64,000 bases of DNA from a virus (IMGVR_UViG_3300022562_001204:142551-206550); one strand, 5' to 3'. Counted from the stretch's first letter, positions 1 through 35,715 are shown. Notes: a model not told the origin generated them from the letters alone. Program-made: numbers and translations.

Positions 1-2511
1 AGCGATGGAGAACTGGACCACCCCAGAGAAGGGGGCTTCTAGGTCAACGATGTTACTGATCGCCGCTTCACCGTCTTCCAAGGTCGGTAGGATGTAATAC
101 CGGTAGGTTTGGTAAGGCTCGAGGTTGTTCTCGATGTAGGTTAGATCTGTCGTGGTCTCAATGAGTGTCATGACCGTGCAGCCACCACCGATACACCGAT
201 AAACCCCATAGTTGACAGCCGTCTCCAGGGAAGTCCATGTCAAGGTGATGGACCCAGCATCGGTGGAGATGCTCAGCTCAACCTTGGGGCGGGTATCGCC
301 TTCCAGCATAAGGTCGTAGGCTTTCTTGAAGTCAGACATCTTGGGCTGGGTCTGGAAATGAAACATTCTGGACATACTGCCGGCCCAGAAAGACCTAGTG
401 CTGTCTAGATTATTGTACCCTCTCGCCAGTTCACCGTAAGACGGCGTAGCGGTTATCGGAGTCGAAGATGCCCCGAACCATCTTGACTGAGCGACACCAT
501 TACAGGCGCTGAAGCCATAGAGGTTGACTGGGTCAATAAAGCCAGCCACGAATGTCCACACCTGGGAATAAGTGGTGCTGGCTGGGTTCATCGATAGTGC
601 TGAACCACCAACCTGGGTACCGGAGGAGTTCCAGCTATCGATCAGGTACTGGGTGCCGGCGTTAGCAATACGAACACCCATGTGGGGGTATTCCTGAGCA
701 TCAGCGACTCTCATCTGCCAGATATAGTCATATCCATCAGTTCCAGAACACCGTAGGAGGCCGCCATAACCAAATGTCCGAGTCGTTGACAGATCAGTAC
801 CTAGGGTCGTTGCGTAGTCCGAGGAGCCATTAAAGGTGAGGTAACTCTCGCTCGAAAGCGCACCAGGGAGGTCTCCGGACGTACTCCACGTCCCACCAGT
901 CAAGGCACCCACAGAGCCGCTGATGCTGTCAGCAATCAAAGTACCCGAACCTTCATTCAGAAGGTAGTAGACATCAGAGATACTCGTGACGACCCCGTCC
1001 ATCGACGTATAGTCGGAGTATGGCTCGCTATAGAAGTCACTGAGGTAGCGTTTCCAGTTGTTGTTATACAGGTACTGGATCTCATCGTTGGTCAGGCTAT
1101 CGTGGGCCCACCAGAGGTCAGAGATCCAGGCTCCGGTCGTTGGTGTACCACCGTAGGTTTCGTTGCCCAGTCCAAAGAGAGTGACCGTACGGTTTCTTCC
1201 AGTCGTCAGGACGGTACTGGCCTCCAAGACGCCATCGATGTAAAGCCCGACGGTGTTTGTGGTGTAGTCGTAGGTGCCGTATACATGGTGGTGATACCCG
1301 GCTACGAACGTACTCGTACTGGTGATCGTCCACCAGCCTGTATTACTGGTACCGACCGGCCTGCCAAAGAACACGATCTTACCGGCCGAATAGTTGAACC
1401 AAACCGACTCATGGTAACCAGAACTACCCCCGACGAACACAGAGAATGACTGTGTCAGGTTACTCAACGCTACCTTCATACCAAACGCCCAGCCCATCGA
1501 GGTATGGCAGAGATTAGACCCCGTGGCACCCAATGTCGAACTGGTATCCAGCTGTTCAGTCGTTGGACTGAGACAGTAGTGGTAATCCGACATCTCGGTG
1601 TACGTAGCCGTACCTGTGTAGCTGTTACCTGCCAGGCCCGTGTCGGTCAGGTTTTGGTCCAACATCCACCAGTTAGAGATCTTGGAACGTAGGGATGCTC
1701 GAACACTTGCCGTCGTATAGATACGAGCGGGTGTGGTAATGGACGCCTGGTTACTGGCGACCATGGTCGCCTGGGTGGAGATGGGAAGGACATAGTACGT
1801 ATACGTGGTCACCTCATCCAGTCCCTGGTGCCAGTACGTGTTGTCTTCGGTCTGATCCAGGTAGGTGAAGGTGGTCGCGTCGGTGCTGACGTAGATCTCG
1901 TAGTACTCGGCCGCACCACGTGTTGACCATGTCAGCACGGACCCCGCTGGGCCATCAGGTGCCTGGACAACGGCCAGGTCTGTAATGGGTGTGCTGTAGC
2001 TACAGTAGTAGAGACTCACGCCATAACCCAGCGTCGTGTCTCCGTACTCGACACCGCAGTCAAGCCCGATCATGCCAGACCCGTCAACGGAGGCAAGGTC
2101 GTCTTTCAGTGTCTGTAGTGAGTCAGAGATGGCGGTGAGTGCAGTCTGGAGACCGCTGATATCCTCGTACCCGACCTCAACGTTACCGTCGGTATCGGGG
2201 AGTTCTCCACAGACGCTCAGAACAGAGGTGCTATCGGTCAGTGGGAGTGTCCCGACCAACGTCCATGTCCCGTCAGTACCCTTCGAGTAGATCGATGAGG
2301 TGTCCAGGTCGATGTATCCATCGTCAACGCGACCCAAGTTGGTCGCGGGCGTTCCGCTACCCACCCACCAGTCACTGCCATCTAAAGTGGACAGTAGAAC
2401 CACCAGAATTCGTTTGTTTTGAGACTGTGTGTCGGTCTCGGATAGGTCTACGACGGGCAGGTAGTCCGTCAGATCCTTGGTATCCAGGGTTGGTAATTCT
2501 GAAATCTTCAT
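1..2511 (-). CDS. Tail fibre/adhesin-like virion protein, paralog of 7087..11673; truncated by the window edge (absent from the ORF track)
   Basis: Hand translation from ATG 2511 gives MKISELPTLDTKDLTDYLPVVDLS...; the same frame is open in the segments I translated and at base 1. Shares the MKIS N-terminal module, has FN3-like repeats (YRCIGGGCTVMT) and LamG-like segments (HHHVYGTYD), and ends in the window at a Calx-beta-like VVQFS. Confidence 0.8.
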   Translation of the reverse strand, partial: MKISELPTLDTKDLTDYLPVVDLSETDTQSQNKRILVVLLSTLDGSDWWVGSGTPATNLGRVDDGYIDLDTSSIYSKGTDGTWTLVGTLPLTDSTSVLSVCGELPDTDGNVEVGYEDISGLQTALTAISDSLQTLKDDLASVDGSGMIGLDCGVEYGDTTLGYGVSLYYCSYSTPITDLAVVQAPDGPAGSVLTWSTRGAAEYYEIYVSTDATTFTYLDQTEDNTYWHQGLDEVTTYTYYVLPISTQATMVASNQASITTPARIYTTASVRASLRSKISNWWMLDQNLTDTGLAGNSYTGTATYTEMSDYHYCLSPTTEQLDTSSTLGATGSNLCHTSMGWAFGMKVALSNLTQSFSVFVGGSSGYHESVWFNYSAGKIVFFGRPVGTSNTGWWTITSTSTFVAGYHHHVYGTYDYTTNTVGLYIDGVLEASTVLTTGRNRTVTLFGLGNETYGGTPTTGAWISDLWWAHDSLTNDEIQYLYNNNWKRYLSDFYSEPYSDYTSMDGVVTSISDVYYLLNEGSGTLIADSISGSVGALTGGTWSTSGDLPGALSSESYLTFNGSSDYATTLGTDLSTTRTFGYGGLLRCSGTDGYDYIWQMRVADAQEYPHMGVRIANAGTQYLIDSWNSSGTQVGGSALSMNPASTTYSQVWTFVAGFIDPVNLYGFSACNGVAQSRWFGASSTPITATPSYGELARGYNNLDSTRSFWAGSMSRMFHFQTQPKMSDFKKAYDLMLEGDTRPKVELSISTDAGSITLTWTSLETAVNYGVYRCIGGGCTVMTLIETTTDLTYIENNLEPYQTYRYYILPTLEDGEAAISNIVDLEAPFSGVVQFSIA

Positions 2512-2560
2512 CAGGTCAAAACCTCGAGAGACCCTCGGTTATAGTCATTTCATACAGAAT

Positions 2561-2595
2561 GGACAGGAGAGAGCCAGAAAGGCTCTCTCCTGTCC
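2561..2595. terminator. Intergenic hairpin
   Basis: GGACAGGAGAGAGCC-agaaa-GGCTCTCTCCTGTCC, 15-bp stem. Confidence 0.7.
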
Positions 2596-2605
2596 TAGTG
2601 TTGCC

Positions 2606-5600
2606 TTATGAGATCGTAACAGGATCTCCGAAGCTGATGCGGAGCTTGCTGTCGCTGATTGCGAAACCCGCTCTCTGGATGATGTACCCCGTAGCAGTAG
2701 CCGGGGAGTACGTCACAGTCCCGGACGTACCCAAGTGGTACTGACGCCCAGGCACCAAGCCTGTAAAGGCATCGACCTCTCCTTCACAATAGACGTTGAT
2801 GGAGGAGCCTGATACCACGGAAGCCAGGATGGCACCATTGGCATACCGGTCTGGGTCGGTACAGCTGGCTTGACGGATTCTCATGGCTGAGCCATTCGAA
2901 TAGATGTTCACCAGACCCGCCACACAGGCTTCCGAAGCAGTTGCCAGGACCGGAAGGGTCTTGCTGTACGAGGTGGTCAGTGACTTCTTGTAGATTCGAA
3001 TGAACGAACCGATGCCGTAACCATTGGCTGTGGTAGTCGTCAGGGTGTACGTGGTCAGGTTGGCTGTACTGCTCCAGCTTCCCGTGAAGAAATGGAGACC
3101 AATGGCGCTAGGGATGTCGCGATTCGACTGATAGTGGAATCTGACCGTACCGTCGGGCGCTTTGAAGATCTTCCCATGAACTACGCAGACAGCATTCGCG
3201 GTATTCAAACCAAACATGGACCGAGAAGCGGAGCTACTGAATGTCGTCGAAGTCCCACTGAAGTAAGCCTTCTGACTATAGTAGTTCGCATCCGTGGTAT
3301 CGGTGTTGTGGGTCAGGTTTGTGACCAGCGTGGACCCAGAGGAACCGTTGCCCAGAATACCGATCTCAATATCATAGACCAGGTCACTATCGAGGTCCAG
3401 ACCCGAGATCGACATCGTGTTCGATACCGAGGAGAGTAGGACAGAGCCTACCAGGTCATAGCGGCCAGACGGCTGAGCACCCTGATAAGCGGAGACCAAC
3501 GGTCCTGTGACCGAGAAGCACTTGGTCGACGAGGCCGCCAAGGTCAGGTCTTCACTCAGGTAGATAGCGGGTTCGACGTAGTCACCCGCGTAAAGGTAGA
3601 GGGTCGTACTCGCTGTGGACGTCAGCGAACTGTCTGCCGTACCACTATCATCTACGATTTCCCCATTCACCATGAGTCCGGCAGCACCTGAGACAGTTGT
3701 GGTGGTGTACCGAGTATAGTTGACGATGTAGGTCCCTTCACGTTTGATGTTGACACGAAGGTACGTGCTGTCCCAGAGACTCTTAGGATCCAGCAATACA
3801 CCATCCAGGGGGACCTTGGTCCAGGCGCTGGTAGCTGTCATGGGATAGCCCGTCGCTCGGTAGGCCTTCACGGCCGTAGAAGGTCCACCCACAGACTCTA
3901 ATGACTCCAGCATCGCTGGGATGTTATCCACCTCAATGGTGGACTCCGTGTTGGAGTACTCGGTAAAGTCCCAGGTTACTGCATCGGACGTACCGAAGTA
4001 GTCCCCGGAAGAGGTTGCGATGACGTAGGAAGTCCCTGCACTACCACCGAAGCGGACCATCCAACTGGTCTCGTCCAGGGTATCGACCGTCCAGTCATAT
4101 GCCAGGGTAAACGGCGTGGTGCCGTCGCCCCAGGTCGTTGCGACAGCATCGCTGCTTCCGACGCGGAATAACGCTACCGTAACCGCGGCACTGGTGTTGT
4201 TGGTCCAGCCGACGACTCGGATAGAGACTGTGTTTCCAAGGACCTTAGCAGAATAGACGTGAGTTTCGAACTCCTCACCATCGGTGATCTGCGGAACCTC
4301 AGTGCCGGAGGCGATGGTCAGAGTCGTACTGGACCCTGTGGTGTCGCGATACGTCACATGACGCACCACGACGCCTCCTACCCCGGTATTCTCGTAGGTC
4401 ACTGGTTCTACGGGGTCTACCCAGGTCGGAGCTCCGCTGGAGATGGAGAGTTGCTGATCCTCCGCACCGATCGGCAGTCGCGTGAGTTCACCACTCAAGG
4501 CGTAGAAGAGGTCGTAGTCTTCTGACCCTGATGGTAGCGTTATGCCACCCGAAGGATCGGCCCAGGCAGGGGTTCCAGACACCATGGTCAGTGTCTGACC
4601 ATCGGTTCCAACAGGAATTCGAGCCAGGTCGGAGCTGTCGGTGTCGTAATAGAACAAATCTCCTTCTGTAACCCCCGTGGGGAAACTGACATCCCCGGTC
4701 CCGGAGGCCGCATCGGTCCATACTGGGATTCCGCTGGCCAGTGACAGCACCTGCCCATCGGTACCCTTGGCTAGACGTGCCAGTACCCCACTGGAAATGT
4801 AGAGAATATCCCCATCCTGGATACCCGAGGGAAGAGCTGCTGCACCGACGGTTGAAGCAGTGACCGTCCCGTAGTAGGGCGCTGTCCCGTTGGTCATCAG
4901 GAACTGACCGTTGGTGCCAATGGGGAGCTGTACGATGGTCGAACCGTCGTAATAGAAGATCGCCCCCGCGGTCAATGACGCCGGTGCTGGTAGAGCGCCG
5001 AGACTCTCGGCAGTTACGTCAACATAACTGGGGAGCCCATCTACAATGCTCAGAAACTGACCGTCGCTACCGACGTTCAGTGCCGATAGAGCGGCGTTAT
5101 TCGCATAGAGCAGAGCGCCATCACCGGCATCTGACGGGAGTTCGAGCTGTTCTGTCGAAGCAAAGCGATAGACCTTGACCCAACTACCAACATCTACAGC
5201 CCCGGTGGTATCGCTACTGATACGGAGTGAGATGACTGAATCTGTACCGAGTCGAACAATACCCCGCACTGAAACGGCAGCATTTGTATTGTACTGACGA
5301 TGCATCGTCAGTACAGCTCTGGGTCGATTGTCAGCACCGACCGCCAAGCGACCTGAGCCTGAGAATGACTGTCCAGCATCCACCGTCTGAATGGTGGCCG
5401 TATTCTCTACGCCCGAAGTCTCCGAATCCGCCACCGTAACGTAATTGACCCGGTAATTGGTGTCTGTCGTATCTGCGTTGAGGAACCATTTAAAGATGGC
5501 CGAGGATGTACTGGCGTTCCTCAGCTCAAACTCAACGAAGTAACTCTGATCGGAGTCGAGGTCCATCCCCGTCACTTCCAGATAGTCCGCTGCGGTACTG

Positions 5601-16852: not shown

Positions 16853-17599
16853 TTACAGCGTGCTGCGGACGTTCGTGATATCCGCAGTGATGAACTTCAC
16901 GATCATGCTCGACCAGTTCTCGTACTCGTCGAGCGTGGCGAGGATCTCGTTCAGGGGTACCCAGCCGATGGTGATGAGATGCTCGTCCGCCACGATGAGT
17001 TCGACGGTCTCGTCGAGCTGATAGAAGCGAGAGAAGCCCAGATGGGCGCGACCCACGTCATTGGAGTCGTCACGAACCATCATCACCGTCCCTGTTCCCT
17101 CCGGAACAAACTCCACGCCATCGGAGGACATCAGGATGATCTCTTCGGAAGTTTCCCGATCAAAGCCGGATTCTAGCGTGCGCTGGAAGTCCAAAACCCA
17201 GGAAGCCTCATCCACGCCCGGAATACCTTCCAGGTAATCAGCGTCATCCAGCTCGATGTGGCCGCCAAAGCCGAAGGACTTCTTGCCGACCAGCCGGGAC
17301 TCGCCCACGCCCTTGCTGCGCTGATAGACGAAGATCTCCGTGCTCTCGTCCTCACCACGAACGAAGACGTTGTAGTTGACGATCTGTCGGAAGGTCATCA
17401 GCTTATTGCAGACCCAGCGAGGCAGGAATGAGCCGGTGCACTGGAGTTCGGCACAGACGGCGTCATAATCACGAACCGTGACGCCCTCAGGGATCAATGC
17501 ATCGGAGAACTCCGTGGGAACCGTCAGCACCAATTCGTGGTGTTTCGGGAAATCCTGGAGGGCCTGCATTCGCATGTCGTTGTACATGGATGTGGACAT
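16853..17599 (-). CDS. NUDIX-like phosphoesterase (YmaB-type)
   Basis: FRQIVNY...YQRSKGVGESRLVGKKSFGFGGHIE...RETSEEI...DVGRAHLG. Confidence 0.65.
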   Translation of the reverse strand: MSTSMYNDMRMQALQDFPKHHELVLTVPTEFSDALIPEGVTVRDYDAVCAELQCTGSFLPRWVCNKLMTFRQIVNYNVFVRGEDESTEIFVYQRSKGVGESRLVGKKSFGFGGHIELDDADYLEGIPGVDEASWVLDFQRTLESGFDRETSEEIILMSSDGVEFVPEGTGTVMMVRDDSNDVGRAHLGFSRFYQLDETVELIVADEHLITIGWVPLNEILATLDEYENWSSMIVKFITADITNVRSTL

Positions 17600-17616: not shown

Positions 17617-18501
17617 TTAGACGAAGTCGTTGATGTATTCGCCGTTTTCAACAGCGAGGGTGAAAACGCGGAGAAGCGTACCGCTTACAGAGACGGCCAG
17701 CTGCACGGAGATGTTCTCCTCTTGCATGGGCTGAATGGCGAAGGTGTATGCTGGATGGGTGGTGTCCTCAGAACCCCTGAGTTCACGTAGCGTCGAGAAG
17801 ATCCGCTTGCCAGTCTTGCGATCGAGCATGTAGGACTTCCCTTCCAGGAACCGAGTGAGTTCCTTGAGGGCGTCGACGTCTGACAGTTCTGAGGAGGAGG
17901 ATGCGTAGAGATGGGCGGCGCTGTACCACTCCTTGACCCCGAAGCCCAGGGTCGCCGTCGGGTCTGTGTTTCCGTCGACCATGACCCAGCCACGCTTCTC
18001 GGGATTCCACTCGCGGAGCGTGTAGAGATTCCCGGCAGAGCCGGTCTTCAGCCAGTGAAGACCGCGGACCTCCCGGTATTCCATCGGAGGGATTGGGATC
18101 TTGATGATGTACGTGTAGTACGTCTCCTCGTCCAAGGCTTCAATCTCGGCCTGTGTATCCGGGAGACGCCGAGGCAGCGGAATGTCCCCAGAGGCCACCG
18201 CCTTCTCGAAGAGCCCGATGGCGTTGGCGACCACTGCTTCCGAAAGCTTGTCGGTAATCTCAAAGGCCCGACTCAGGTAGAGGTACTGCTCAAACCCCTT
18301 GTGAGTCATCAGGGTCTGCCCGGCCGGGTAGTCCATGATGGGGTCTTCCATCGCCGTCTCACTGAAGGCCAGCTGGAGTAGGACTCCAAACTCATTGGCA
18401 CGGAGTACGAAGGCCAGCGGTTGTCTGGAGAACTCATTGATCCAGTACTGCCCGGCCTTGTACGTGGGCGCAACCTTCTCTGTGGGAACCACGTCGTTCA
18501 T
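17617..18501 (-). CDS. Hypothetical protein (294 aa)
   Basis: Long ORF tiled in an operon; GC3-rich codons. Confidence 0.7.
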   Translation of the reverse strand: MNDVVPTEKVAPTYKAGQYWINEFSRQPLAFVLRANEFGVLLQLAFSETAMEDPIMDYPAGQTLMTHKGFEQYLYLSRAFEITDKLSEAVVANAIGLFEKAVASGDIPLPRRLPDTQAEIEALDEETYYTYIIKIPIPPMEYREVRGLHWLKTGSAGNLYTLREWNPEKRGWVMVDGNTDPTATLGFGVKEWYSAAHLYASSSSELSDVDALKELTRFLEGKSYMLDRKTGKRIFSTLRELRGSEDTTHPAYTFAIQPMQEENISVQLAVSVSGTLLRVFTLAVENGEYINDFV

Positions 18502-19145
18502 GCAACTCTCCGGTTTTCGGTCTCCGCAGTCGGAAGACCGTTAAGAATTCGATGCCCTCGAATCACGAGGGTCTTTTGCTCCTCCCACTTTGGATGGGAG
18601 GCTGTCAGGTTCAGGGTGACCCTGGGTTTGTTGTCCACGATCGGAGCCAAATGGTCCGTGGTCAAAACAAGGGTGCAACGGGTAAGCTGCCGCCAGTCTT
18701 TGACCCTGGCCTCCTGACCAAAGAGGTTCAGCCCGATGGTCTCCATCATCTGCTGGGTCTTTTCTGAGTCGCTACCCAGGCAGATGCGGTCAAAACAGTC
18801 GACGCCCCGGATCACCTTGGTATTCAGCAGGTGATGATCCGTCGGCGCCACAAACAGGCAAGGTGCCCCCTTCATGGGGAGGTCATCCGTATTCAGCAGC
18901 TCACCCACGAAGTTCAAAGGGTGAAGTTCTCGGACATGTTCCGCAAACAGGTAGACGTTCGTCACCTTGTTCTTCTCACGGACAGAGATCACGAACCTCT
19001 TGAAGTTCGGATGGGCGGCCTCAGCCTCCACACAAGGGAGTATGTACAACTCATCCCAGCTAGAAAAGCTCTCCGTCCTGGAGGGCTTCGCATTTCGGTT
19101 CAACCGTCCATCCTTCGTGACGGCGATGAGCTTGATCTGTGGCAT
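18498..19145 (-). CDS. Hypothetical protein
   Basis: ATGA overlap with the next gene; likely start ATG 19145 (GGAAGG SD). Confidence 0.7.
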   Translation of the reverse strand: MPQIKLIAVTKDGRLNRNAKPSRTESFSSWDELYILPCVEAEAAHPNFKRFVISVREKNKVTNVYLFAEHVRELHPLNFVGELLNTDDLPMKGAPCLFVAPTDHHLLNTKVIRGVDCFDRICLGSDSEKTQQMMETIGLNLFGQEARVKDWRQLTRCTLVLTTDHLAPIVDNKPRVTLNLTASHPKWEEQKTLVIRGHRILNGLPTAETENRRVA

Positions 19146-19205
19146 ACCTTCCCTTCCCAGTACTGCGTTGAACACTAGATACCCTGCGACCAGCTGATTT
19201 TACAG

Positions 19206-19418
19206 CTACTCAATCTGAAGGTGCTCGTACTTTTTGGGTTTGTTTGCGCATCGTGAAGCTGCGGTTTTCTTCGACTTGACCGCCATCTCTACCACGAATT
19301 TTTCCAGAATCTCGGTGTCTTTCTGATGTTCGCCAGTATTGGCACTCAATTTCCGCCAGCCGGTCTTGGTCTTGAATGACTTTGCTATCGACCATCTGTT
19401 AGTTCGCATGCTCTTCAT
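19206..19418 (-). CDS. Small basic protein (70 aa), paralog 1
   Basis: MKSMRTNRWS...ANKPKKYEHLQIE. Confidence 0.75.
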   Translation of the reverse strand: MKSMRTNRWSIAKSFKTKTGWRKLSANTGEHQKDTEILEKFVVEMAVKSKKTAASRCANKPKKYEHLQIE

Positions 19419-19482
19419 GAATATTTTCCATTCCCAGTACTGGGTTGAACACCCAGTACCTTACGACAAGTTGGTTTTACAG

Positions 19483-19695
19483 CTACTTAATCCGAAGATG
19501 TTCGTGCTTCAGGGGTTTGTTGGCATAGTGCGAAAGCAGGTTCTTATCCGACCGGACGTCCACAGCTGCCGAGACTTTGTACAGGATCGCGGTGACTTTC
19601 CCTTCCTCGCCAATGTCAGCGGTCAGCTTATGCCAGCCCGGCTGGGTCTTGAACGACGGCAGTGTCGACCATTTGTTATCGCGCATGCTCTTCAT
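19483..19695 (-). CDS. Small basic protein (70 aa), paralog 2
   Basis: MKSMRDNKWS...ANKPLKHEHLRIK. Confidence 0.75.
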   Translation of the reverse strand: MKSMRDNKWSTLPSFKTQPGWHKLTADIGEEGKVTAILYKVSAAVDVRSDKNLLSHYANKPLKHEHLRIK

Positions 19696-20101
19696 GGGTG
19701 CCTTGCCTTCTGATAACTCGATATGCCTCCCTCCACGACTCCTCGGATTCTCTGTACTTTACAATTGTTCTGAATCTATCGAAGAAGATCTGAGGACAAG
19801 CTGACTTGAAGTCGAATGTCGTATTTCCAACCTGATTCTTATTAATCAAGTTGCCAGGATACTCGGGTTTTCCAAGACTGCGGGGAAGGAACGACTTTGA
19901 AACACAGCTTTCTGCGTTAACAAGCAGTTTGACATCAGGGTAGTAAAGAACTTCAACTTTAGACCATTCTCGTGGCTTTACTGCCCAGGGTAGTTGGGTG
20001 ATCAGCTGCTCTGTATAGAGAGTCTTATGGATGAGCGGTGACCACACCGAGAGATACGTGTCCGGCTCGGGTACCTTCTTAGCTGGCTTAATACGTCTCA
20101 T
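19676..20101 (-). CDS. Small basic hypothetical protein (MRRIKPAKK...)
   Basis: Start moved to ATG 20101 (AGGAG SD). Confidence 0.6.
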   Translation of the reverse strand: MRRIKPAKKVPEPDTYLSVWSPLIHKTLYTEQLITQLPWAVKPREWSKVEVLYYPDVKLLVNAESCVSKSFLPRSLGKPEYPGNLINKNQVGNTTFDFKSACPQIFFDRFRTIVKYRESEESWREAYRVIRRQGTHEEHAR

Positions 20102-20109
20102 AGCACTAG

Positions 20110-20433
20110 CTACTCCTGAGGAGGTTCCCACCAGCGGGTGGGCTTGAGCGCTTCGATAGATGTTTTCGACGCACCCGCACTGTAGTCCAAGGGGTTCTTG
20201 TAGCAGGTGCTGATTTGCATCAGCGTAAACCTGACTTTCTCATGGGGTCGATTCCTGCAAGGGTTCTTACCCAGTCGAAGATCCCTGGCAGCTGGCGCCA
20301 TATACGACGGTATCGACGTTTCCGGGTCCTGTAGCTTGGTTCGACCTGTCTCGACGATCTCTCCCCTGATCTTAAAACCAGGAGGTTTTCGAGAGCGGAA
20401 GATGGTTTTCCCCCCGCACGCCAGTCGTTTCAT
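20110..20433 (-). CDS. Small basic hypothetical protein (MKRLACGGK...)
   Basis: GGAGG SD; tiles with its neighbours. Confidence 0.6.
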   Translation of the reverse strand: MKRLACGGKTIFRSRKPPGFKIRGEIVETGRTKLQDPETSIPSYMAPAARDLRLGKNPCRNRPHEKVRFTLMQISTCYKNPLDYSAGASKTSIEALKPTRWWEPPQE

Positions 20434-20448
20434 GTGTACCTACCTCCA

Positions 20449-20472
20449 GGAGTAGCCTGAACAGGCTACTCC
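20449..20472. terminator. Intergenic hairpin
   Basis: GGAGTAGCCTG-aa-CAGGCTACTCC. Confidence 0.6.
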
Positions 20473-20482
20473 TTTATGACAG

Positions 20483-20761
20483 CTATCTGGTAAACCAGGA
20501 AAGCATTGCGGAAATGTCACCAGAGAAAGCTTTATCTGCCAGTCCCTGGACCGGAGAAGTGTCTTTCTCTAGGTATGTCCTCATCAACTTCTCTTCGAGC
20601 GAGCGGTCTTTATAGAGAACAGCCGCACTGAACCGGCAGTCGTCCTTTTTAAGATCGTCGTGAATGACGGGCTTGTCCCTGATACATTCAGGGGTTCTGA
20701 TAGTCATGCTCCGACGAGACGACCCTTTCGGGATCTTTTTCCACGGAGTGAGCCGGTTCAT
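20483..20761 (-). CDS. Small basic hypothetical protein (MNRLTPWKK...)
   Basis: ATGA overlap with the upstream ORF; hairpin follows the stop. Confidence 0.6.
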   Translation of the reverse strand: MNRLTPWKKIPKGSSRRSMTIRTPECIRDKPVIHDDLKKDDCRFSAAVLYKDRSLEEKLMRTYLEKDTSPVQGLADKAFSGDISAMLSWFTR

Positions 20762-20955
20762 GGCTCATCAAGGACGTCGGTGTCTTTTTCCAGGTCATGG
20801 ACCTGCTTAATGCCAGTATTATCGACTGCTGCCTTTTGGCCGGACAGACGTTCGAGGGGTTTACCGCTGCATGCATACTTATCCAGAGACACCCTGTCCT
20901 TGACTTCGGATAAGTACGTCATGAGGAAACGACCACCTGAGTTGACTCGACGCAT
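20758..20955 (-). CDS. Small hypothetical protein (MRRVNSGGR...)
   Basis: TATATAAAGGAG leader. Confidence 0.65.
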   Translation of the reverse strand: MRRVNSGGRFLMTYLSEVKDRVSLDKYACSGKPLERLSGQKAAVDNTGIKQVHDLEKDTDVLDEP

Positions 20956-20980
20956 GGTGTTACTCCTTTATATATGTCAG

Positions 20981-21014
20981 CATGAGAGCACTAGGGTCCC
21001 CTAGTGCTCTCATG
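20981..21014. terminator. Intergenic hairpin
   Basis: CATGAGAGCACTAGGG-tc-CCCTAGTGCTCTCATG. Confidence 0.7.
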
Positions 21015-21019
21015 TATGG

Positions 21020-21364
21020 TTATTCAAGAATTTCATCATCATCCCAGGGAAACCATCCCAGGATCTTAAAAAGATACTGCTGAGTCTCATTAGCGCCAAT
21101 CATCGCCTTGGCTTCGATGTTACCGTCGGGGCTATTGGACGGTTTTCCATCTCCATACCCGGAACAGTCCAGCTTTTGATCAACGACCTCCGCAATACGG
21201 GCCTCTCTGTAGAGGGCCTGGGCGTCACACGTCGTGTCCTTCGTGGTGTTCCCCATATAGCAGCCATGTTTGACGATAAACTCATAGTCGACATTAACCA
21301 TGGTAACCCAGCGCCGTGGACGAACCTTAGTCATCTGTCCGCCAAAACCTCCAGTTCTTCTCAT
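21020..21364 (-). CDS. Small hypothetical protein (MRRTGGFGG...)
   Basis: AAGGAA SD; hairpin follows the stop. Confidence 0.55.
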   Translation of the reverse strand: MRRTGGFGGQMTKVRPRRWVTMVNVDYEFIVKHGCYMGNTTKDTTCDAQALYREARIAEVVDQKLDCSGYGDGKPSNSPDGNIEAKAMIGANETQQYLFKILGWFPWDDDEILE

Positions 21365-21584
21365 TCGAGTGTTCCTTGTGCGGCTTATGGGCAGCGTCTA
21401 TTTTAGCTTTGGCGGTCGGAATCTGCCACTCTGCTACGGTTTTCATACCCAGGGAGCGGTCATTCTTCGATTTCAAGCAAAAGAGACTGAAGTATTCTGA
21501 GGTACTGCTGGACAGAGGTTCCAGGTTGATCAGCTTGAACGCCGTACGGTGGTCTTTTCTCCACCGAGGAGGTCTGATAGCCAT
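21327..21584 (-). CDS. Small basic hypothetical protein
   Basis: Tiles in the minus-strand run. Confidence 0.5.
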   Translation of the reverse strand: MAIRPPRWRKDHRTAFKLINLEPLSSSTSEYFSLFCLKSKNDRSLGMKTVAEWQIPTAKAKIDAAHKPHKEHSNEKNWRFWRTDD

Positions 21585-21588
21585 GGTA

Positions 21589-21903
21589 TCACTGAGGGGG
21601 GTTTAGAGGGGATAGGCTGTACTTCCATGGCCTGTAGGTAAAGATCAACGTATGTGGCTTAGTGGGGTTCGTACAGTCGTGCTTGACTTTCCACGTCGTT
21701 TGGATCCCTATATACTTCTCTGCCATATCCATGTATATCCAACTACCTACGTCAAGTCTCGGCGTGCTAAGCTGTGTCTTTTCGAGGTCTATCATTCTCT
21801 CTTTACGAAGTACTTTATAAGGAGCCATTCGCTTGTTGACTTTATCGACGCTAGCCACTACGAACTTTGGCAGGTTCTTCTTGACGATTGGTAGCCGTTT
21901 CAT
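21589..21903 (-). CDS. Small basic hypothetical protein (MKRLPIVKK...)
   Basis: AAAGGA SD. Confidence 0.6.
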   Translation of the reverse strand: MKRLPIVKKNLPKFVVASVDKVNKRMAPYKVLRKERMIDLEKTQLSTPRLDVGSWIYMDMAEKYIGIQTTWKVKHDCTNPTKPHTLIFTYRPWKYSLSPLNPPQ

Positions 21904-22237
21904 ACCCGTCCTTTAAGTCCTTCGTACTGACGAAAACCATCTGACCGGTGATGTCATCCCTTACAGCCGCATACTGGTACTTACCATTGATAGCGAACCT
22001 CTCTTTCATTGAGAGATGGTTCACGTCACCCTTCTGTTTTTCGTCACTAGCCACCCCACGATGTTTCCGTTGGATGTAGCGCCGTTCCTTCTGAGCCACC
22101 ATTTCATCAGACAAGCAATCTCGACCGAACGTCGAGAAGTAGTCTTGATAACTCTCCTTCTGGTAGGGCTGATCAGAGTAAGCGGGACCTCGTCCTACCC
22201 GGATTTTCTCAGAGTGGGTCCATCGTGAATGGTTCAT
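21851..22237 (-). CDS. Small hypothetical protein
   Basis: Tiles in the minus-strand run. Confidence 0.55.
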   Translation of the reverse strand: MNHSRWTHSEKIRVGRGPAYSDQPYQKESYQDYFSTFGRDCLSDEMVAQKERRYIQRKHRGVASDEKQKGDVNHLSMKERFAINGKYQYAAVRDDITGQMVFVSTKDLKDGYETATNRQEEPAKVRSG

Positions 22238-22258
22238 GGTTCGATACCTATCGAAATT

Positions 22259-22600
22259 TTACGGTTTAGTCGACTTAGTGATAGGTTTGATGCGCTCAAA
22301 CCCGAAGGCAGTGCCGTCCGTTACTAAAACAAAACGGTGCTTGTCAATGCCGTAGGCCCTCTCTTTTTTTGCGGTGGTGCCCACGACGTGGTCTATTTTG
22401 TCTAAGTCTAATGCAGCCATCCGTTTTTGGGCAGAATAACGTTTCTTCGTATCCTCCACCCGTTTGTTCGATATGGCACTCCGATCACCCACGACGAGGT
22501 CATAGTCGTGGCCTATCTTTCGCCAGATACGTGAACCACAGAGTACCGTGTCTCGCACTACGACGACACGGTTAGTGAGGTTCCAGCGAGTTCCTTTCAC
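22259..22600 (-). CDS. Small basic hypothetical protein
   Basis: GTGA overlap with the upstream ORF. Confidence 0.55.
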   Translation of the reverse strand: MKGTRWNLTNRVVVVRDTVLCGSRIWRKIGHDYDLVVGDRSAISNKRVEDTKKRYSAQKRMAALDLDKIDHVVGTTAKKERAYGIDKHRFVLVTDGTAFGFERIKPITKSTKP

Positions 22601-22950
22601 GACCTGCCCTTTGGTTTTATTACGTAGTCGAGTGAAACGAATCTAGTATGGCCACAGCCATTGTCGATAAGACAACCTCTGAACTTACCGGTCGGTACCA
22701 TATGAACCTTCAGGTCGGAGAAATACACGAAGGAAAACATCTGGCTATCGCTGTTTTTGACTTGGGGTGTGGACTTACGGGTACGGGTCAATTCGAACTT
22801 AGTGTCCTCGACGGCACTCGACGGCCTGTTCTTTTCTACAAGGAAACCATGGTGCCAGATTCGGTGCTCCTCCTCTTTGCCACATAGTGCGTCGGTAAGA
22901 CGATGCTCGGTAGGAGGGAATGGCGGTCGTTTGAAGATCGGTCTATGCAT
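22597..22950 (-). CDS. Small basic hypothetical protein
   Basis: Tiles in the minus-strand run. Confidence 0.5.
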   Translation of the reverse strand: MHRPIFKRPPFPPTEHRLTDALCGKEEEHRIWHHGFLVEKNRPSSAVEDTKFELTRTRKSTPQVKNSDSQMFSFVYFSDLKVHMVPTGKFRGCLIDNGCGHTRFVSLDYVIKPKGRS

Positions 22951-22978
22951 GGGCCGAGTGCTCTAACATCTATGATGC

Positions 22979-23326
22979 TTAGGGTTGAACGACGCGTGCG
23001 TAATAGTTAACCAGGATGGTGCCCTTACGCGTAACTAGTTTTATGCTCCTGTGCTTACCAGAACGATCTGAGAGAATCTTTCCGGTGATGGTCTTTCTCA
23101 CGATCATTATCTTGTCTTCGAAATCCTCAGAATCCCTCGGAACCAAATTGAACCGTCTATTAAGATACTTTTTCTGGTTCAAGACAGTCTGGTCTACGTC
23201 CTTCTCTGGTAGAAAGTCGAATTTTTCGGTAAACTCTTTATCATCGTTGGAGATAGAGTCTTCGTAGCGATAGATGTAGACCTGGGTAGTCGTCATCGGT
23301 GTTTTCTTAAAAGTCAGTTTACGCAT
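22979..23326 (-). CDS. Small basic hypothetical protein (MRKLTFKK...)
   Basis: Tiles in the minus-strand run. Confidence 0.6.
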   Translation of the reverse strand: MRKLTFKKTPMTTTQVYIYRYEDSISNDDKEFTEKFDFLPEKDVDQTVLNQKKYLNRRFNLVPRDSEDFEDKIMIVRKTITGKILSDRSGKHRSIKLVTRKGTILVNYYARVVQP

Positions 23327-23342
23327 GACTGATCCATTCTTC

Positions 23343-23702
23343 TTACTTTCGGAGATTGAAGATCTGGTTGGGTAGGCGTTCCTTGTAGAACCCCCGGAAG
23401 ATCCCGCGACTCACCTTGAGCCCATAGACGCGGTCGAAGACCCAGTCGCTGATATACTCGTCGCTGAGGTCGTGGTTGATCTGCTCCTTGGAGTTCTGGA
23501 TCTCGCAGACTTCTGTGCAGTACCAGGCCTTGTCCTCGATGACCGGGGTGTCTTTGTCGATACCCCGGTCGGAGTCTTCTTTGTACTCCAGGTCCGGATG
23601 AAGCACCCGCTTGTTCCGCTCTGCCCCGTAATCCCTCCGGAAGAGCTTCTTTTCAATCCGTGCTGCGAGTGTGTCTTTGGATAGCGATGGAATTCTACGC
23701 AT
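23343..23702 (-). CDS. Small hypothetical protein (MRRIPSLSK...)
   Basis: TATATAAAGGAG leader before ATG 23702; the longer ORF-track start runs through a hairpin. Confidence 0.65.
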   Translation of the reverse strand: MRRIPSLSKDTLAARIEKKLFRRDYGAERNKRVLHPDLEYKEDSDRGIDKDTPVIEDKAWYCTEVCEIQNSKEQINHDLSDEYISDWVFDRVYGLKVSRGIFRGFYKERLPNQIFNLRK

Positions 23703-23734
23703 GACCACTCCTTTATATAGTCTCGACAAAAAGA

Positions 23735-23770
23735 ATAGAGAGAGGCGGGGATATCCCCGCCTCTCTCTAT
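23735..23770. repeat. Perfect 36-bp palindrome (hairpin family)
   Basis: ATAGAGAGAGGCGGGGAT|ATCCCCGCCTCTCTCTAT. Confidence 0.85.
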
Positions 23771-23773
23771 GCA

Positions 23774-24961
23774 TCACTTCGACGGAATCATGCCGATCAC
23801 ACGCGCCGGCGCGACGGTGAAACCGTTGTCCGGATCGTAGTTGAGTGCTTCCGAGAGAGTGATGCTCGTGAAATCAACATCGGTCGGCAGCGTATCCTTG
23901 CCGACTTCGGCACGGGCCAGATCAGCCTGCTCACGGGTCAGCGGCAGGAAGGTGATCACCCGGAACATACGACCCGGACGCAGCAGCGCCTTGTCCACGT
24001 CATTGATGCTGGGTAGGTTGGTCGAGATGATGACCTTCCGCTTGACACCGATGACGCCGTCCACCAGGTTCAACAGAGCCGACATGCCCGTGTTGCCCTT
24101 CTCGCGAGACTGGATGTAGACGTCCGCGTCCTCCAGGGCCACGATGGAATCGTCACCGAAGCTGGTGAGCCAGCCCGTGATGTTCGGCGATTCCAGCGCC
24201 TGGCCGTTGCTGCAAATGCCGTATTCCTTGCGATCCATCTTTTCGAAGATGGTGCGAAGGAGCGTGGACTTGCCGGTGCCCGGGGGACCGACCAGCAGCA
24301 GGACGTTGGCGTTGGAGTCTTCGAAGTCCGTCACCAGCTTGTCAACGCCGTCCTTGATGCAGGGGTAGAAGTTGTCGAAGCCGCGGTTCTTCTCGTCGAC
24401 ATACAGCAGACGGTCATGGAAAACGAAGCTGCCATCAGCGTTCACGCCAGTGAGGATCTGGATCTTCTTGCGATCGGTGGCCGCAAAGCGGTCCTTCATG
24501 GATGCATAGACCTGGTTCACCAGCTCCTTGTCACCGACCACGGAGAGGGTGAAGGGCTGGCTGCGGCCGTAGTGCGACAGGAAGACCATCAGGTGCGGAC
24601 TGCGATACTTGTCCTCGTTCGGAACGATGCCGCGCCAGACCAGGTCGGACTTGAACTCCATCGTCAGACCCATGGCATCCCAGAACTCCTGGAAGTCGGA
24701 GAAGTCAAACTTCTCGCTGTCCGGAACCTGCTCCAGGAAGGCGGCCGTCGGCACGTTCTCGTCACCACGGATCGCCCAGAGGAGCTCCGTGAAACGGATG
24801 GTGTCGATGTCCAGGTTAGTGATGATGTCCTGGAGAACCTGGAAGAAGGTGGCCTGTTGGTTGCCATTCTTCAGGGCTTCCTGCATGGCAGCGGCCAGTT
24901 CGGCGTTGGTCATGTCAGCGCTGAGTTCTTTCTTGGAGAGGTTTGCGGTGTTCGATGACAT
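23774..24961 (-). CDS. AAA+ ATPase
   Basis: Walker A GPPGTGKST; Walker B region ALEDAD; LLNLVDG; DKALLRPGR arginine finger. Confidence 0.9.
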   Translation of the reverse strand: MSSNTANLSKKELSADMTNAELAAAMQEALKNGNQQATFFQVLQDIITNLDIDTIRFTELLWAIRGDENVPTAAFLEQVPDSEKFDFSDFQEFWDAMGLTMEFKSDLVWRGIVPNEDKYRSPHLMVFLSHYGRSQPFTLSVVGDKELVNQVYASMKDRFAATDRKKIQILTGVNADGSFVFHDRLLYVDEKNRGFDNFYPCIKDGVDKLVTDFEDSNANVLLLVGPPGTGKSTLLRTIFEKMDRKEYGICSNGQALESPNITGWLTSFGDDSIVALEDADVYIQSREKGNTGMSALLNLVDGVIGVKRKVIISTNLPSINDVDKALLRPGRMFRVITFLPLTREQADLARAEVGKDTLPTDVDFTSITLSEALNYDPDNGFTVAPARVIGMIPSK

Positions 24962-24975
24962 CTGGTTCTTTCCTT

Positions 24976-25404
24976 TTAGTTGAATGATGCAGCGATGAAA
25001 CGGTAGCCGTTGATCGGGCGGGGTGTCCCCGAGAGTTCCGACTTCAGGCAGGTACGAATGATGGATCTGGCTACTTTGGTCGCTCGATGGGCCGACATGA
25101 CAGACTCGTGATAGACACGAGTCTGTCCATTATCGACATACACGGGCAAATAAGCACGGGTGTTGTTCAGCAGGAGGTCTTGGACTTCCTGCTTGCTTGG
25201 GAACTTCTCTTCCATTCGCTTGACGATAAACCGACCTCGTACCATCCCAAAGGTTCGATGACCCACTGTCGTCAGTGAAGAGTAGAGAGCTGCCGAGGTG
25301 ACAAAGAGGGCGGTACTGGCCAAGTGGAGAGAGTCGTAGTTCTTCACGGTGTCGGTCTGGGTGTCCCAGACCTTGACCTTGATTCGACGATATCTCGGCA
25401 TCAC
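24976..25404 (-). CDS. NUMOD1/IENR1-like DNA-binding repeat protein (two modules, no nuclease domain)
   Basis: IKVKVWDTQTDTVKNYDSLHLAS...GRFIVKR and YHESVMSAHRATKVARSIIRTCLKS...INGYRF. Confidence 0.6.
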   Translation of the reverse strand: MMPRYRRIKVKVWDTQTDTVKNYDSLHLASTALFVTSAALYSSLTTVGHRTFGMVRGRFIVKRMEEKFPSKQEVQDLLLNNTRAYLPVYVDNGQTRVYHESVMSAHRATKVARSIIRTCLKSELSGTPRPINGYRFIAASFN

Positions 25405-25841
25405 AAGCCCTTACCACTAGCCGCGCGGGTGAACCGATATCCACGGACAGTCCGGGGTACTCCTCGACGCTCCGATTTCAGACACTGCCGGATGGCGTAA
25501 TCGGAGATCGTCAGGAGTCTGGAGGCCAGTGCGATGGAGCAGTAGGTAGTCCGAGTGGCACCGTCATAAGCGGTCACCGGCTGAGGGGGTCGCCCGCCAG
25601 GTTTTCTGTAGCTCAGAATTTCCGCAAGGTCCGGGAATTCTTCGTCGAGTCGTCTGACGATGTACCGTTTTCGAATGACGCTGAATTTTCCCTGCTTGGA
25701 TTTTGCCATCGCGACATAGACCGCGTCCGCGGTTGCGCCGATGGCTCGAGCAGCTAGCCGAATGCAGTCGTATTGCTTGATGCTGTCGGTTCTGATATCC
25801 AGGACCTTGACCTTGACTCGGTTCGGGGCTTTGTAGTTCAT
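25401..25841 (-). CDS. NUMOD1/IENR1-like DNA-binding repeat protein, paralog of 24976..25404
   Basis: VKVKVLDIRTDSIKQYDCIRLAARAIG...YCSIALASRLLTISDYAIRQCLKS...VRGYRF. Confidence 0.6.
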   Translation of the reverse strand: MNYKAPNRVKVKVLDIRTDSIKQYDCIRLAARAIGATADAVYVAMAKSKQGKFSVIRKRYIVRRLDEEFPDLAEILSYRKPGGRPPQPVTAYDGATRTTYCSIALASRLLTISDYAIRQCLKSERRGVPRTVRGYRFTRAASGKGL

Positions 25842-26398
25842 ACTCTCTTGACGGGGACCACCCTGAAAGAAAGGAGACCAGAAGTATCGGTTCGAAGCTT
25901 CTGGAGCAGAACCTCGTGTGTCAGTTCACCCACGTAGCGGCCATGACCACGGACTTCGAGATCGAAAGGGTCCTGACCTGGATGCTGGTTGAGGCAGAGA
26001 TCTCTGGAGGGCTTGAATTCCGAAACGAAGATGCCATAGGCGATCTCCGGGTGTTCGAAGCCATCCTTGTAGATTGCTTTCAGAATTGTGTAAGCATTCC
26101 CGGAGTCGCAAACACCACCCAGGAACCCTTTCAGTGCCACTGAGGAGTGACCTCGTCCGCCAATACGCTTGCCAAACAAGTTCGAAGAGAGCTGTACGGC
26201 GACGGCGTAGTCTCTGCTATCAGGAGTGATGGGCGTGCAGACTTTCCGATTGATCAATGCGCCGCAGATTTGGTGATTGATCTTCCAGATGCCGGTGTCG
26301 ATCTGTTCGATCTTCGGGTCACCGTCGGTGATTGACATCAATACCGCGCCTGCCACCCCTGGGAATTCGGAGGTCAGGTCAGCGTCTGTCATGTACAT
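25838..26398 (-). CDS. Hypothetical protein
   Basis: ORF downstream of the promoter-like motif at 26451. Confidence 0.65.
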   Translation of the reverse strand: MYMTDADLTSEFPGVAGAVLMSITDGDPKIEQIDTGIWKINHQICGALINRKVCTPITPDSRDYAVAVQLSSNLFGKRIGGRGHSSVALKGFLGGVCDSGNAYTILKAIYKDGFEHPEIAYGIFVSEFKPSRDLCLNQHPGQDPFDLEVRGHGRYVGELTHEVLLQKLRTDTSGLLSFRVVPVKRV

Positions 26399-26450
26399 AT
26401 GCGGAAAACCTCAAGGGTTTGTAGACAGTAAAAGAGAGATAGGAGGATAT

Positions 26451-26490
26451 CTCACGTAGAGTATATCCTCCTGTATAAGGTTAGGAACGG
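26451..26490 (-). promoter_or_regulatory. Bipartite promoter-like motif
   Basis: Minus strand CCGTTCCTAA-N14-ATATACTCTACGTGAG upstream of 26398. Confidence 0.65.
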
Positions 26491-33662: not shown

Positions 33663-35528
33663 TCAGTAGCGGAAGCTGGTGTAGCCCATGTTGGAGTAGC
33701 CGGCCGGGTTGTAGCCATTGCGGGTATAGAAGGACGCCGACGGATCGATCATACCGTCCATGGCGTAGTTCGCCGTCGGGCGACTGGCCATGTAGTCCTG
33801 ACCCGAGGCCGGGGTGTGGACCGTGACCGGCAGACCGGCGTCGCGGATCGAAGTCACCAGCGCGTTCATCAGTGCCGAGTGGAACATGTGACGGGTGCTG
33901 CGGCCGGTGAAGACGGCCGTATTGTTCGACATGACGTTGATCATGTTCATACGAGTGGCCAGACGAATTTCCTGAGGCCGGTCGACGGCCAGGAAGGTAT
34001 CGGTCCAGTCGCGGATCATGGTCGGGTTCTTCGTACCGACGATGTTGGCCACGGCGGTGTAGTCGAACTCGCGGATGTCACGACGACGGCCCTGGTCATC
34101 TTCCCAATAGCCGTTCAGAATGGTTTCTGACATCGACGTGAAGATCGGGGAGTTTCGCGCGAACAGCTCACCGAAGCGACCATTGGTCAGGTTGTTGCAG
34201 GCCGTGATGAACATGTTGTACGCTTCTTCGTTACGAGAAGCGACGGCGCTCATGAAGGAGAGGTAGGTCATGGACGGGCCATATTCCGGCACGTCGATGG
34301 CGATGGTGGCGTAGGGGTGGAACAGCGCGCTCAGGAACATGTTGAACTGCTGAGGACCAAAGTTGGCGCTCTTGGTGTCCATCGGCTTGCCGAACTGGTT
34401 CGGCGAGGTCACGTCGGACGAGGCCATCGGGAGGTTGCCTTCGATGTTGAGGGCGCCGATGTCAGTCATGTCCAGTTCGTTCGGGCTGGTGTTACGCACC
34501 TTGAATGCCTGAACCCAGGTGTTGTACTGCATCAGCGACGTGGCCGTGGCCACACCGAGAACCACCGCTTCCGGTGTCTGCGGGTGGGTGTTCATGTCGG
34601 TGATAACGAAGCGCGGCATGAACCGGCGCAGTGCGTCCGTGCTGCGATGCTGCGGAACGAAGCCCTGGATCGGGGCAGCGTCCTGGCTCGGAGCCCAGAG
34701 CACATCCATGAAGCCGGTCAGGTCGACGATACGACGTTCGCTGGAACCGCTGTTGAATTCGCGGTTCTGATCGGCCGTGGCGCCCAGGCGGTTGGTGGTG
34801 GTGATGACGACGTCCGAGCGGATCGGCAGGCCGGTGATGTCTTCCAGGCTGTTGCGCTGAATGGCCACGTTGACGGCCACAGCGCCTTCACGACCCATCA
34901 GAGCCAGATTGATCGGCTGGGTGTTCGGCTTCAGGCGGGCCAGTTCGGAATAGGCAGCGGTGGCCGCATGGGCAGCAACCCGCAGAATGTTGGCCTTGTC
35001 ATTGACGTTGAAAGTCCGCGGAACCACGAGACCATCGACGTAGCGAACCTTCTGGGTGCCGGATTCCTTGCGCACCTGCGTCAGGACTTCATTGATCATG
35101 ATCCGGTTGACCGCGTCGCAGGGGAAGTACTGCACGCTGACGGTCTGACCGTTGATGTTCTGCTGCCGCGGCTCGATCTTGTTGCCGGTGGCTTCGAGCA
35201 GGAGGAGATAGGCGGACACGCCCAGCTCAGGGTGCTGACGCAGCTTGGCGGTGACGATCAGGCAGGAGAAGTCCAGCGACTTGATGATGTCGCGGTTCAT
35301 CTCGACCACCGAGATGGTCATTTCCTGGGCGGCTGTCGGCGACACGGCGGCGAAGGTTTCTTTCAGACCTTCCAACATCTTCGTGTAGACTTCATTGCCC
35401 GGCGTGCTGGAGATCGGCAGATTGCCGAAGTCGAACGAGTCCCAGGTCATGCGGGAGGTGCGGCCGGAATCGCTGCTCGGGCGCTGACCGTTGTCGAAGC
35501 TGCCGGAGGTGCTGTCATTGACTGCCAT
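33663..35528 (-). CDS. chmA: Chimallin, the phage nucleus shell protein
   Basis: Blocks match 201phi2-1 gp105 as I recall it: GLPIRSDVVITT, DIGALN...MDTKSANF, GYWEDDQGRRRDIREFD, FTGRSTR...AGLPVT; aromatic C-terminus; 621 aa; directly upstream of the nvRNAP subunit. Confidence 0.92.
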   Translation of the reverse strand: MAVNDSTSGSFDNGQRPSSDSGRTSRMTWDSFDFGNLPISSTPGNEVYTKMLEGLKETFAAVSPTAAQEMTISVVEMNRDIIKSLDFSCLIVTAKLRQHPELGVSAYLLLLEATGNKIEPRQQNINGQTVSVQYFPCDAVNRIMINEVLTQVRKESGTQKVRYVDGLVVPRTFNVNDKANILRVAAHAATAAYSELARLKPNTQPINLALMGREGAVAVNVAIQRNSLEDITGLPIRSDVVITTTNRLGATADQNREFNSGSSERRIVDLTGFMDVLWAPSQDAAPIQGFVPQHRSTDALRRFMPRFVITDMNTHPQTPEAVVLGVATATSLMQYNTWVQAFKVRNTSPNELDMTDIGALNIEGNLPMASSDVTSPNQFGKPMDTKSANFGPQQFNMFLSALFHPYATIAIDVPEYGPSMTYLSFMSAVASRNEEAYNMFITACNNLTNGRFGELFARNSPIFTSMSETILNGYWEDDQGRRRDIREFDYTAVANIVGTKNPTMIRDWTDTFLAVDRPQEIRLATRMNMINVMSNNTAVFTGRSTRHMFHSALMNALVTSIRDAGLPVTVHTPASGQDYMASRPTANYAMDGMIDPSASFYTRNGYNPAGYSNMGYTSFRY

Positions 35529-35674: not shown

Positions 35675-35715
35675 CTCACGTAGAATATATCCGTCCATAC
35701 TGTTTTTAGAAACGG
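35675..35715 (-). promoter_or_regulatory. Bipartite promoter-like motif upstream of chmA
   Basis: CCGTTTCTAAA-N14-ATATATTCTACGTGAG. Confidence 0.7.

Follow-up and report, generated by a model that had tools for sequence, protein, structure and literature searches.

A run of small phage proteins with a shared basic N-terminal peptide beside a Bcs1/YjoB-like ATPase gene in a chimallivirus genome

The cassette and its N-terminal peptide

The stretch IMGVR_UViG_3300022562_001204:142551-206550 (64,000 nt; the window, to whose positions coordinates refer unless stated otherwise) derives from a 257,149-bp virus record. In it, 14 minus-strand open reading frames (ORFs) of 65-141 amino acids (aa) tile 97% of positions 19206-23702, with gaps of -53 to +64 nt (table 1). 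This cassette and the N-termini of its ORFs were found just as a preliminary description had located and quoted them. Eight of the ORFs start with M[KRN][RK][ILVT] (the motif), and the gene of an AAA+ ATPase lies next to the cassette.

The preliminary description rightly stated that the phage encodes ChmA, which is located at 33663-35528 (best match FLC9, 30% identity). PhuZ, an RNA polymerase beta subunit and a DNA polymerase are encoded in the same virus record. Judged by its gene content, the genome is that of a chimallivirus, as the Chimalliviridae hallmarks ChmA, PhuZ and a multisubunit RNA polymerase are all present.

The gene set of the whole genome was produced with a purpose-written gene caller (268 genes), which left four of the 14 cassette ORFs uncalled owing to their weak codon bias. 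The comparison set consists of the 258 called genes outside the cassette, of which 92 are small and 21 are basic (K+R at least 15%).

The motif opens 8/14 cassette ORFs and 1/258 other genes (Fisher 4e-11), and it is absent from the starts of the 92 small and the 21 basic genes. When residues were shuffled within the cassette proteins, the mean was 0.15 motif starts and eight were reached in 0/100,000 shuffles. The comparison with the whole phage that the preliminary description proposed thus gives a frequency above background. The pattern was set after data inspection, and looser forms are also enriched, that is, M[KR] (10/14 vs. 20/258) and MxR (8/14 vs. 19/258). If any start within 30 codons is permitted, three of the 258 outside genes match the motif. 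In other genomes, it was found in 0/364, 9/463 and 3/404 genes, with at most two per any 14 genes, and the single outside gene of this phage is comparable to these rates. That gene (G000:C1:11835-13571, L179) starts with MNRL and belongs to phrog_2943, annotated as "polymerase."

Residues 2-9 of the 14 ORFs hold 42 K/R and one D/E among 112 positions. They are free of acidic residues in 13/14 ORFs, compared with 98/258 other genes (P = 5e-5), and six of the eight ORFs with the strict motif carry a second basic pair at positions 7-10. The Arg codons at motif position 3 vary (CGT, CGA, CGG and AGA). Start regions do not differ from those of other genes in folding (-6.05 vs. -6.36 kcal/mol, P = 0.81) or in the AT share of codons 2-4 (0.56 vs. 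0.53, P = 0.37). Since the codons vary and the start regions are neither less folded nor richer in AT, the constraint acts on the peptide. The mixed CGN/AGA codons therefore bear out the earlier claim of conservation at the peptide level, and a translation-initiation bias was rejected as the cause of the motif.

All ten ORF starts that were tested are present letter for letter in a protein collection. These include 20101 and 23702, the two starts which the preliminary description had reassigned. Differing start calls also exist for 23702, 22600, 21364 and 19695, and the gene caller favored 21334 (MTKV) over 21364.

The base composition by codon position in the 14 ORFs is that of real genes. 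Their codon adaptation is weak, with -0.12 to +0.16 per codon and a long-gene median of 0.15. The ORFs are presumed to be translated, with early timing and low expression. Their bodies mostly do not align, as first described, with the exception of two paralogous pairs that had been missed. The 19418/19695 pair, of 70 aa each, is 54% identical and stems from a 277-nt duplication; its dN/dS of 0.49 is modest evidence of selection. The older pair, 22237/22600, is 23% identical over 95 aa (E about 1e-3). Both pairs belong to the six ORFs without the strict motif.

By charge and hydropathy only, 12/14 cassette proteins are predicted to be unfolded, against 16% of the 92 other small genes. The isoelectric point (pI) is 8.5-10.2 in 12/14. 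None of the 14 shows a Sec or Tat signal, as the best 12-residue hydropathy is at most 1.45 and the usual Tat pattern occurs in 0/14. Searches of the 14 ORFs against Pfam, PHROGs and NCBIfam gave nothing above the cut-off (best E 0.0014). Deep homologue searches covered five of the ORFs. A profile of the 70-aa pair found, among 1.84 billion proteins, only itself and a repeat-protein artefact; the 23702 ORF had no homologue in viral contigs, and the ESM Atlas gave no usable lead for two ORFs. A metagenome match of the 22600 ORF was rejected as a shadow frame of a bacterial gene.

Table 1. Positions of the cassette ORFs, the adjacent ATPase gene and nearby elements in the window
Feature	Position	Strand	Remarks
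ORF, 119 aa, MRRI start	23343..23702	-	strong Shine-Dalgarno sequence (SD; AAGGAG)
ORF, 115 aa, MRKL..KK start	22979..23326	-	start as in protein collection
ORF, 117 aa, MHRP start, basic, without strict motif	22597..22950	-	start as in protein collection
ORF, 113 aa, MKGTRW	22259..22600	-	GTG start overlaps upstream stop; distant paralogue of 21851-22237
ORF, 128 aa, MNHSRW	21851..22237	-	distant paralogue of 22259-22600
ORF, 104 aa, MKRL..KK start	21589..21903	-	start as in protein collection
ORF, 85 aa, MAIRPPRW start	21327..21584	-	
ORF, 114 aa, MRRT start, acidic body	21020..21364	-	alternative start 21334 (MTKVRPRRW) with better SD
ORF, 65 aa, MRRV start	20758..20955	-	strong SD
ORF, 92 aa, MNRL..KK start	20483..20761	-	ATGA overlap with upstream stop
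ORF, 107 aa, MKRL start	20110..20433	-	sole start within first 30 codons; 11-bp hairpin precedes
ORF, 141 aa, MRRI..KK start	19676..20101	-	start as in protein collection
ORF, 70 aa, MKSMR	19483..19695	-	copy 1 of 277-nt tandem duplication
ORF, 70 aa, MKSMR	19206..19418	-	copy 2; 54% aa identity, dN/dS 0.49
AAA+ ATPase, 395 aa, phiKZ gp208 family, Bcs1/YjoB-like	23774..24961	-	Walker B reads ED
Perfect 18-bp hairpin and T-run, terminator-like	23735..23770	-	between ATPase and cassette
Perfect 16-bp hairpin, then TATATAAAGGAG leader	20981..21014		
Promoter-like motif GATATACTCTAC, near 26466	26398..26480	-	near-identical copy at 35690 before chmA

The adjacent ATPase and the gene neighborhood

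The ATPase, which the preliminary description had also missed, carries one AAA domain in its 395 aa. Its best sequence match in the PDB is BCS1 (E 2e-14). The best Foldseek matches of its model (pLDDT 77) are Bcs1 and Bacillus subtilis YjoB, with TM-scores of 0.3-0.4 and displaced domains. The N-terminal domain is mixed alpha/beta in the model; the full-length Foldseek alignments with TM 0.3-0.4 cover it as part of the whole chain, and a search for it in phages gave no close relative. The N-terminus is hydrophilic and, judged from the sequence, a membrane anchor is not apparent; the ATPase is therefore closer to YjoB. Three database relatives bear basic N-terminal extensions.

In the literature, cited here and below from the parts of the papers that were available, YjoB is described as a soluble hexamer with a chamber, acting as a substrate-specific chaperone and having the ED Walker B in common with Bcs1 (PMC9565160). 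For the BCS1 orthologues of jumbo phages, a role in transporting proteins in folded form to the inside of the head has been suggested (PMC7824862), and phiKZ gp208 sediments within large complexes (PMC10914614).

The order after the promoter-like motif at 26466 is the 26398 gene (function unassigned), two NUMOD1 genes, the ATPase, the terminator-like hairpin and the cassette. The motif would drive the 26398 gene, the NUMOD1 pair and the ATPase, and its likeness to that of chmA suggests the early class. The intergenic sequence GATATA(C/T)TCT(A/C)C recurs at 26466, 35690, 42081 and 61415 and elsewhere in the genome, some 40-170 nt ahead of chmA, phuZ, the DNA polymerase gene and others, and is a candidate early promoter. 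Directly upstream of the ATPase, at 24976-25841, are two tandem paralogues (38% identical). One of them has NUMOD1-type DNA-binding matches, and a nuclease domain was not found in it.

On the other side, the gene downstream of the cassette (18498-19148) had no homologue, and a phrog_8902 gene is located at 16853-17599. In loci L010-L012, its homologue lies directly 3' of the ATPase. Therefore, the cassette and two ORFans sit between genes which are contiguous in another chimallivirus. Close relatives of the phage were found neither in viral contigs, searched with ChmA and the ATPase, nor in genome contigs, and a blastn search of the cassette DNA against phages gave no match.

The cassette contains no tRNAs, and its Rfam matches are only at the level of hairpins. 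The TATATAAAGGAG leader is of a genome-wide type with 16 exact copies and was thus ruled out as an element specific to the cassette. Many genes throughout the genome follow a perfect hairpin and TATATAAAGGAG (e.g., 20960-21014 and 23705-23770), a combination which is possibly an RNA-processing or leader element.

Comparable runs in other genomes

Tagged ORFs in other jumbo phages, which the preliminary description suggested looking for, were found, with a tag other than the motif of the window. A scan with the ATPase alignment gave 23 loci and a second scan seven. In three complete, ChmA-positive genomes (G001, G002 and G003), the stretch immediately upstream of the ATPase is tiled by seven to eight small ORFs. 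The tripeptide RKK occurs within residues 2-13 of 20/23 of these ORFs (shuffle mean 0.05, maximum 2), whose start positions were chosen after the motif was seen. Across the three spans there are 20 RKK-coding words, every one of them in frame and at codons 5-10, and the Arg is spelt in five ways. Outside the runs, RKK was found in 1/305, 1/293 and 1/388 genes, respectively. The bodies are acidic, mutually unalignable and predicted to be unfolded in 23/23 cases. In G003, the run is preceded by the same promoter motif as chmA of that genome.

In G001 and G003, the last RKK ORF reads on into the ATPase in the same frame, with no stop intervening (L007:9236-10591 and L009:9266-10582). Both ORFs hold an internal ATG for the ATPase proper, so that two isoforms are possible; locus L021 has the same frame with one stop between.

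Similar small ORFs, mostly with MR or MK starts, lie on either side of the ATPase in loci L095, L096 and L097, the first two of which belong to ChmA-positive genomes. Seven orthologous ORF pairs of L095 and L096 are 41-62% identical (ATPase 88%), with pS of 0.65-0.91 and pN of 0.25-0.46. These values indicate that the run ORFs are real, fast-evolving genes under purifying selection.

Nine genomes were also scanned, blind to the motif, for genes that are small, low in codon bias and unfolded in product, and the best run lay at the ATPase in four of them. The scores per ten genes were 9 for the genome of the window, 7 for G002, 7 and 7 for G003 and 6 for G001, whereas phiKZ, 201phi2-1, phiPA3, FLC9 and G010 scored 2-5 and had no comparable run. 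A blind motif scan regained the G002 and G003 runs and part of that of the window and missed that of G001. Its further clusters were judged spurious or membrane-protein runs.

The second run of G003 (contig 43012-40199, minus strand; L072, about 199-3012) consists of 14 overlapping ORFs of 48-103 aa, most of which start with MKSxxEI[GPV] and end with [NH]EI. The closing N-E-I codons are the M-K-S of the next ORF in another frame, and the N-terminal EI codons vary. With a motif at either end, the products may be peptide precursors whose termini are recognized by a protease or ligase. In neither the genome of the window nor six other whole genomes was this start pattern seen.

Small basic proteins with conserved N-termini are also present in jumbo phages at G010 near 233-236 kb, L019:7195-7557, L003:10879-11040 and L008:9254-9415. 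Their N-termini read MSRT[FI]RRKN or, in phrog_7399, M[AS]RS...

Possible roles of the peptide

A constant short peptide on variable unfolded bodies fits a docking tag on exchangeable cargo. We tentatively propose that the peptide is an N-terminal docking tag which the neighboring ATPase reads, a suggestion that could well prove wrong; the small proteins bearing it would be expressed early, evolve fast and be largely unfolded. The cassette would have grown, at least partly, through tandem duplication. Only the short basic peptide (M-basic-basic-hydrophobic, often with a second KK) would have been kept constant, docking on one conserved partner, for which the ATPase encoded directly upstream is the likeliest candidate. 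The ATPase would bind the tag and keep the unfolded client inside its chamber. Release, driven by ATP, would follow at the site of action: the client would either be stabilized in the cytoplasm or, in preparation for the next infection, be packed into the prohead or a different compartment of the phage. From sequence we infer both the binding of tag to ATPase and the destination, as well as the disorder and the effector roles of the bodies.

Several points weigh against this proposal. Another 21 ATPase loci, including that of phiKZ, have no tagged run, and Phabio has a paralogous run, PHABIO_299-306 and 309-311 around the ATPase PHABIO_308, that lacks a clear basic tag. The seven run-bearing loci share one ATPase clade, outside which the ATPase of the window groups with P0016, deep nodes being weak. 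The evidence thus comes from no more than two lineages, one of which came to light because the surroundings of the ATPase were inspected. G001-G003, found through the ATPase and sharing that clade, may go back to a single event. A coincidental second adjacency has a chance of roughly one in ten, as an estimate and not a computed value. The second tagged run of G003 is about 10 kb away from the ATPase, and in the window a terminator-like hairpin parts ATPase and cassette. The motif of the window is unlike RKK, its bodies are basic and those of G001-G003 acidic, and no similarity was found between its ORFs and the run ORFs of the other genomes. Finally, the thresholds of the motif-blind scan were fixed after data inspection.

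The basic N-terminus could instead be a nucleic-acid-binding arm without a protein reader, acting on ribosomes, RNA or phage DNA in host takeover or DNA condensation, with the ATPase nearby through synteny. This is possible but rather unlikely. The high pI of most cassette proteins, the two NUMOD1 DNA-binding genes in the same operon and the co-sedimentation of early phiKZ proteins with ribosomes (PMC10914614) are in its favor, but the fixed position and the hydrophobic fourth residue exceed what charge requires. Moreover, the other basic genes lack the motif, the RKK-run bodies are acidic and the EI[GPV] run is not basic.

With a still smaller probability, the motif is a relic, without any reader, of tandem duplication and stop-start overlap, which would have multiplied the 5' end of one small ancestral gene. 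The two paralogue pairs and the weak codon bias agree with this, as does the second run of G003, where each ORF begins in the very DNA that ends the one before it. However, synonymous codons vary under the motif even though the bodies cannot be aligned, a combination that calls for selection on the peptide. Stop-start overlaps of 4 nt occur at only 2/13 junctions, and orthologous runs elsewhere are under purifying selection.

A capsid-targeting sequence of the T4 kind, binding the prohead core without the ATPase on proteins injected as anti-defence factors, seems improbable. The T-even internal proteins are indeed diverse with only their targeting sequence conserved (PMC3012670), and SPN3US gp53 and gp54 are identical over their first 15 residues (PMC5694885). 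On the contrary, the prohead protease cuts known sequences after Glu, which is absent from residues 2-9 here, and the first 60 aa hold on average 0.43 [SAG]xE sites against a background of 0.68, though the protease motif of this phage may differ. The other 257 called genes, including those of head proteins, are without the motif.

Equally improbable is a degron or decoy, through which a host AAA+ protease (ClpXP or Lon) would take up the proteins, so that these are either short-lived or tie up the protease or an immune sensor. The unfolded bodies and the exposed basic-hydrophobic N-terminus would suit this. The N-terminal pattern for ClpX is Met, one basic residue and three hydrophobics, and it matches 0/14 ORFs. 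This pattern was not found in the available part of PMC8808172. Lineage-specific tags would suit host-specific targets.

Very unlikely is a linear signal for import into the phage nucleus, specific to this cassette, even if all carriers tested are ChmA-positive, the single outside motif gene is a "polymerase" and the motif resembles the basic nuclear localization signal of eukaryotes. The DNA polymerase and an RNA polymerase subunit lack the motif, no comparable run was found in the five low-scoring genomes named above, and PicA cargo is recognized by folded surfaces (PMC11087766). Since these two polymerase proteins lack it, a general role of the motif in nuclear import is also unlikely. The PicA/Imp1 pathway belongs to the same phage family and sorts proteins selectively, but what it recognizes is folded surfaces rather than a linear signal at a terminus (PMC11087766, PMC12908238), and nuclear proteins have yielded no linear signal in sequence searches (PMC11087766). 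Of the address tag originally proposed, a shared peptide-level tag is upheld by the enrichment, the codons and the analogous runs in ChmA-positive genomes, while nuclear import is weakened by the polymerases and PicA.

The docking tag has partial parallels among known systems. Similarly to the cassette, the T-even internal-protein (ip) locus encodes small diverse phage proteins with only a short N-terminal peptide in common (PMC3012670). The T4 targeting sequence is, however, a propeptide of 10-20 residues after whose Glu the prohead protease cuts (PMC5694885), whereas the tag is basic, without Glu at residues 2-9, absent from other head genes and placed beside an AAA+ ATPase. In the case of PVC/Pvc15, an AAA+ ATPase encoded in the locus stabilizes and loads unrelated cargo via N-terminal signal peptides (PMC9054023, PMC11495950). 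Pvc15 differs in its tandem D1-D2 AAA domains and in that about 50 residues are needed and ten fail; in the window there are a single Bcs1-like domain, a motif of 4-10 residues and a phage rather than a bacterial device, with a putative interaction of tag and ATPase. The cassette would thus work like both systems, yet it fails a defining feature of each. The ATPase has a classic AAA domain and the ED Walker B described for both of its best matches, Bcs1 and YjoB (PMC9565160), and phage orthologues of BCS1 have been noted (PMC7824862); the available parts of these papers do not mention a neighboring tagged cassette. Bcs1 proper has an N-terminal transmembrane anchor, unlike the hydrophilic N-terminus found here.

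Taken with the similar rows elsewhere, which have their own tags, the row of tagged small proteins suggests a peptide-tag system not yet described. The literature searched, in which subscription papers are mostly not covered, gave no description of such runs. The principle of the design has precedents, but this instance appears to be new, as do its recurrence with lineage-specific tags and its Bcs1-like neighbor. It is conceivable, if rather doubtful, that nucleus-forming phages own a private sorting system, in which a library of small, unfolded and rapidly changing effectors bears a linear tag specific to the lineage (M-K/R-R-hydrophobic here, R-K-K elsewhere); a Bcs1/YjoB-like ATPase would recognize this tag and carry the effectors into the virion, the nucleus or the vesicle of early infection. 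If so, lineage-specific tags would stop co-infecting phages from using one another's machine.

The tagged runs bear on the routes by which accessory proteins of chimalliviruses reach heads, vesicles and the nucleus. They offer a candidate signal of 4-10 residues together with a candidate reader, the phiKZ gp208 family, whose function is so far unassigned. They also offer dozens of candidate host-interaction proteins beyond the reach of homology searches and, if the tag is indeed transplantable, a tool to load cargo into jumbo phages.

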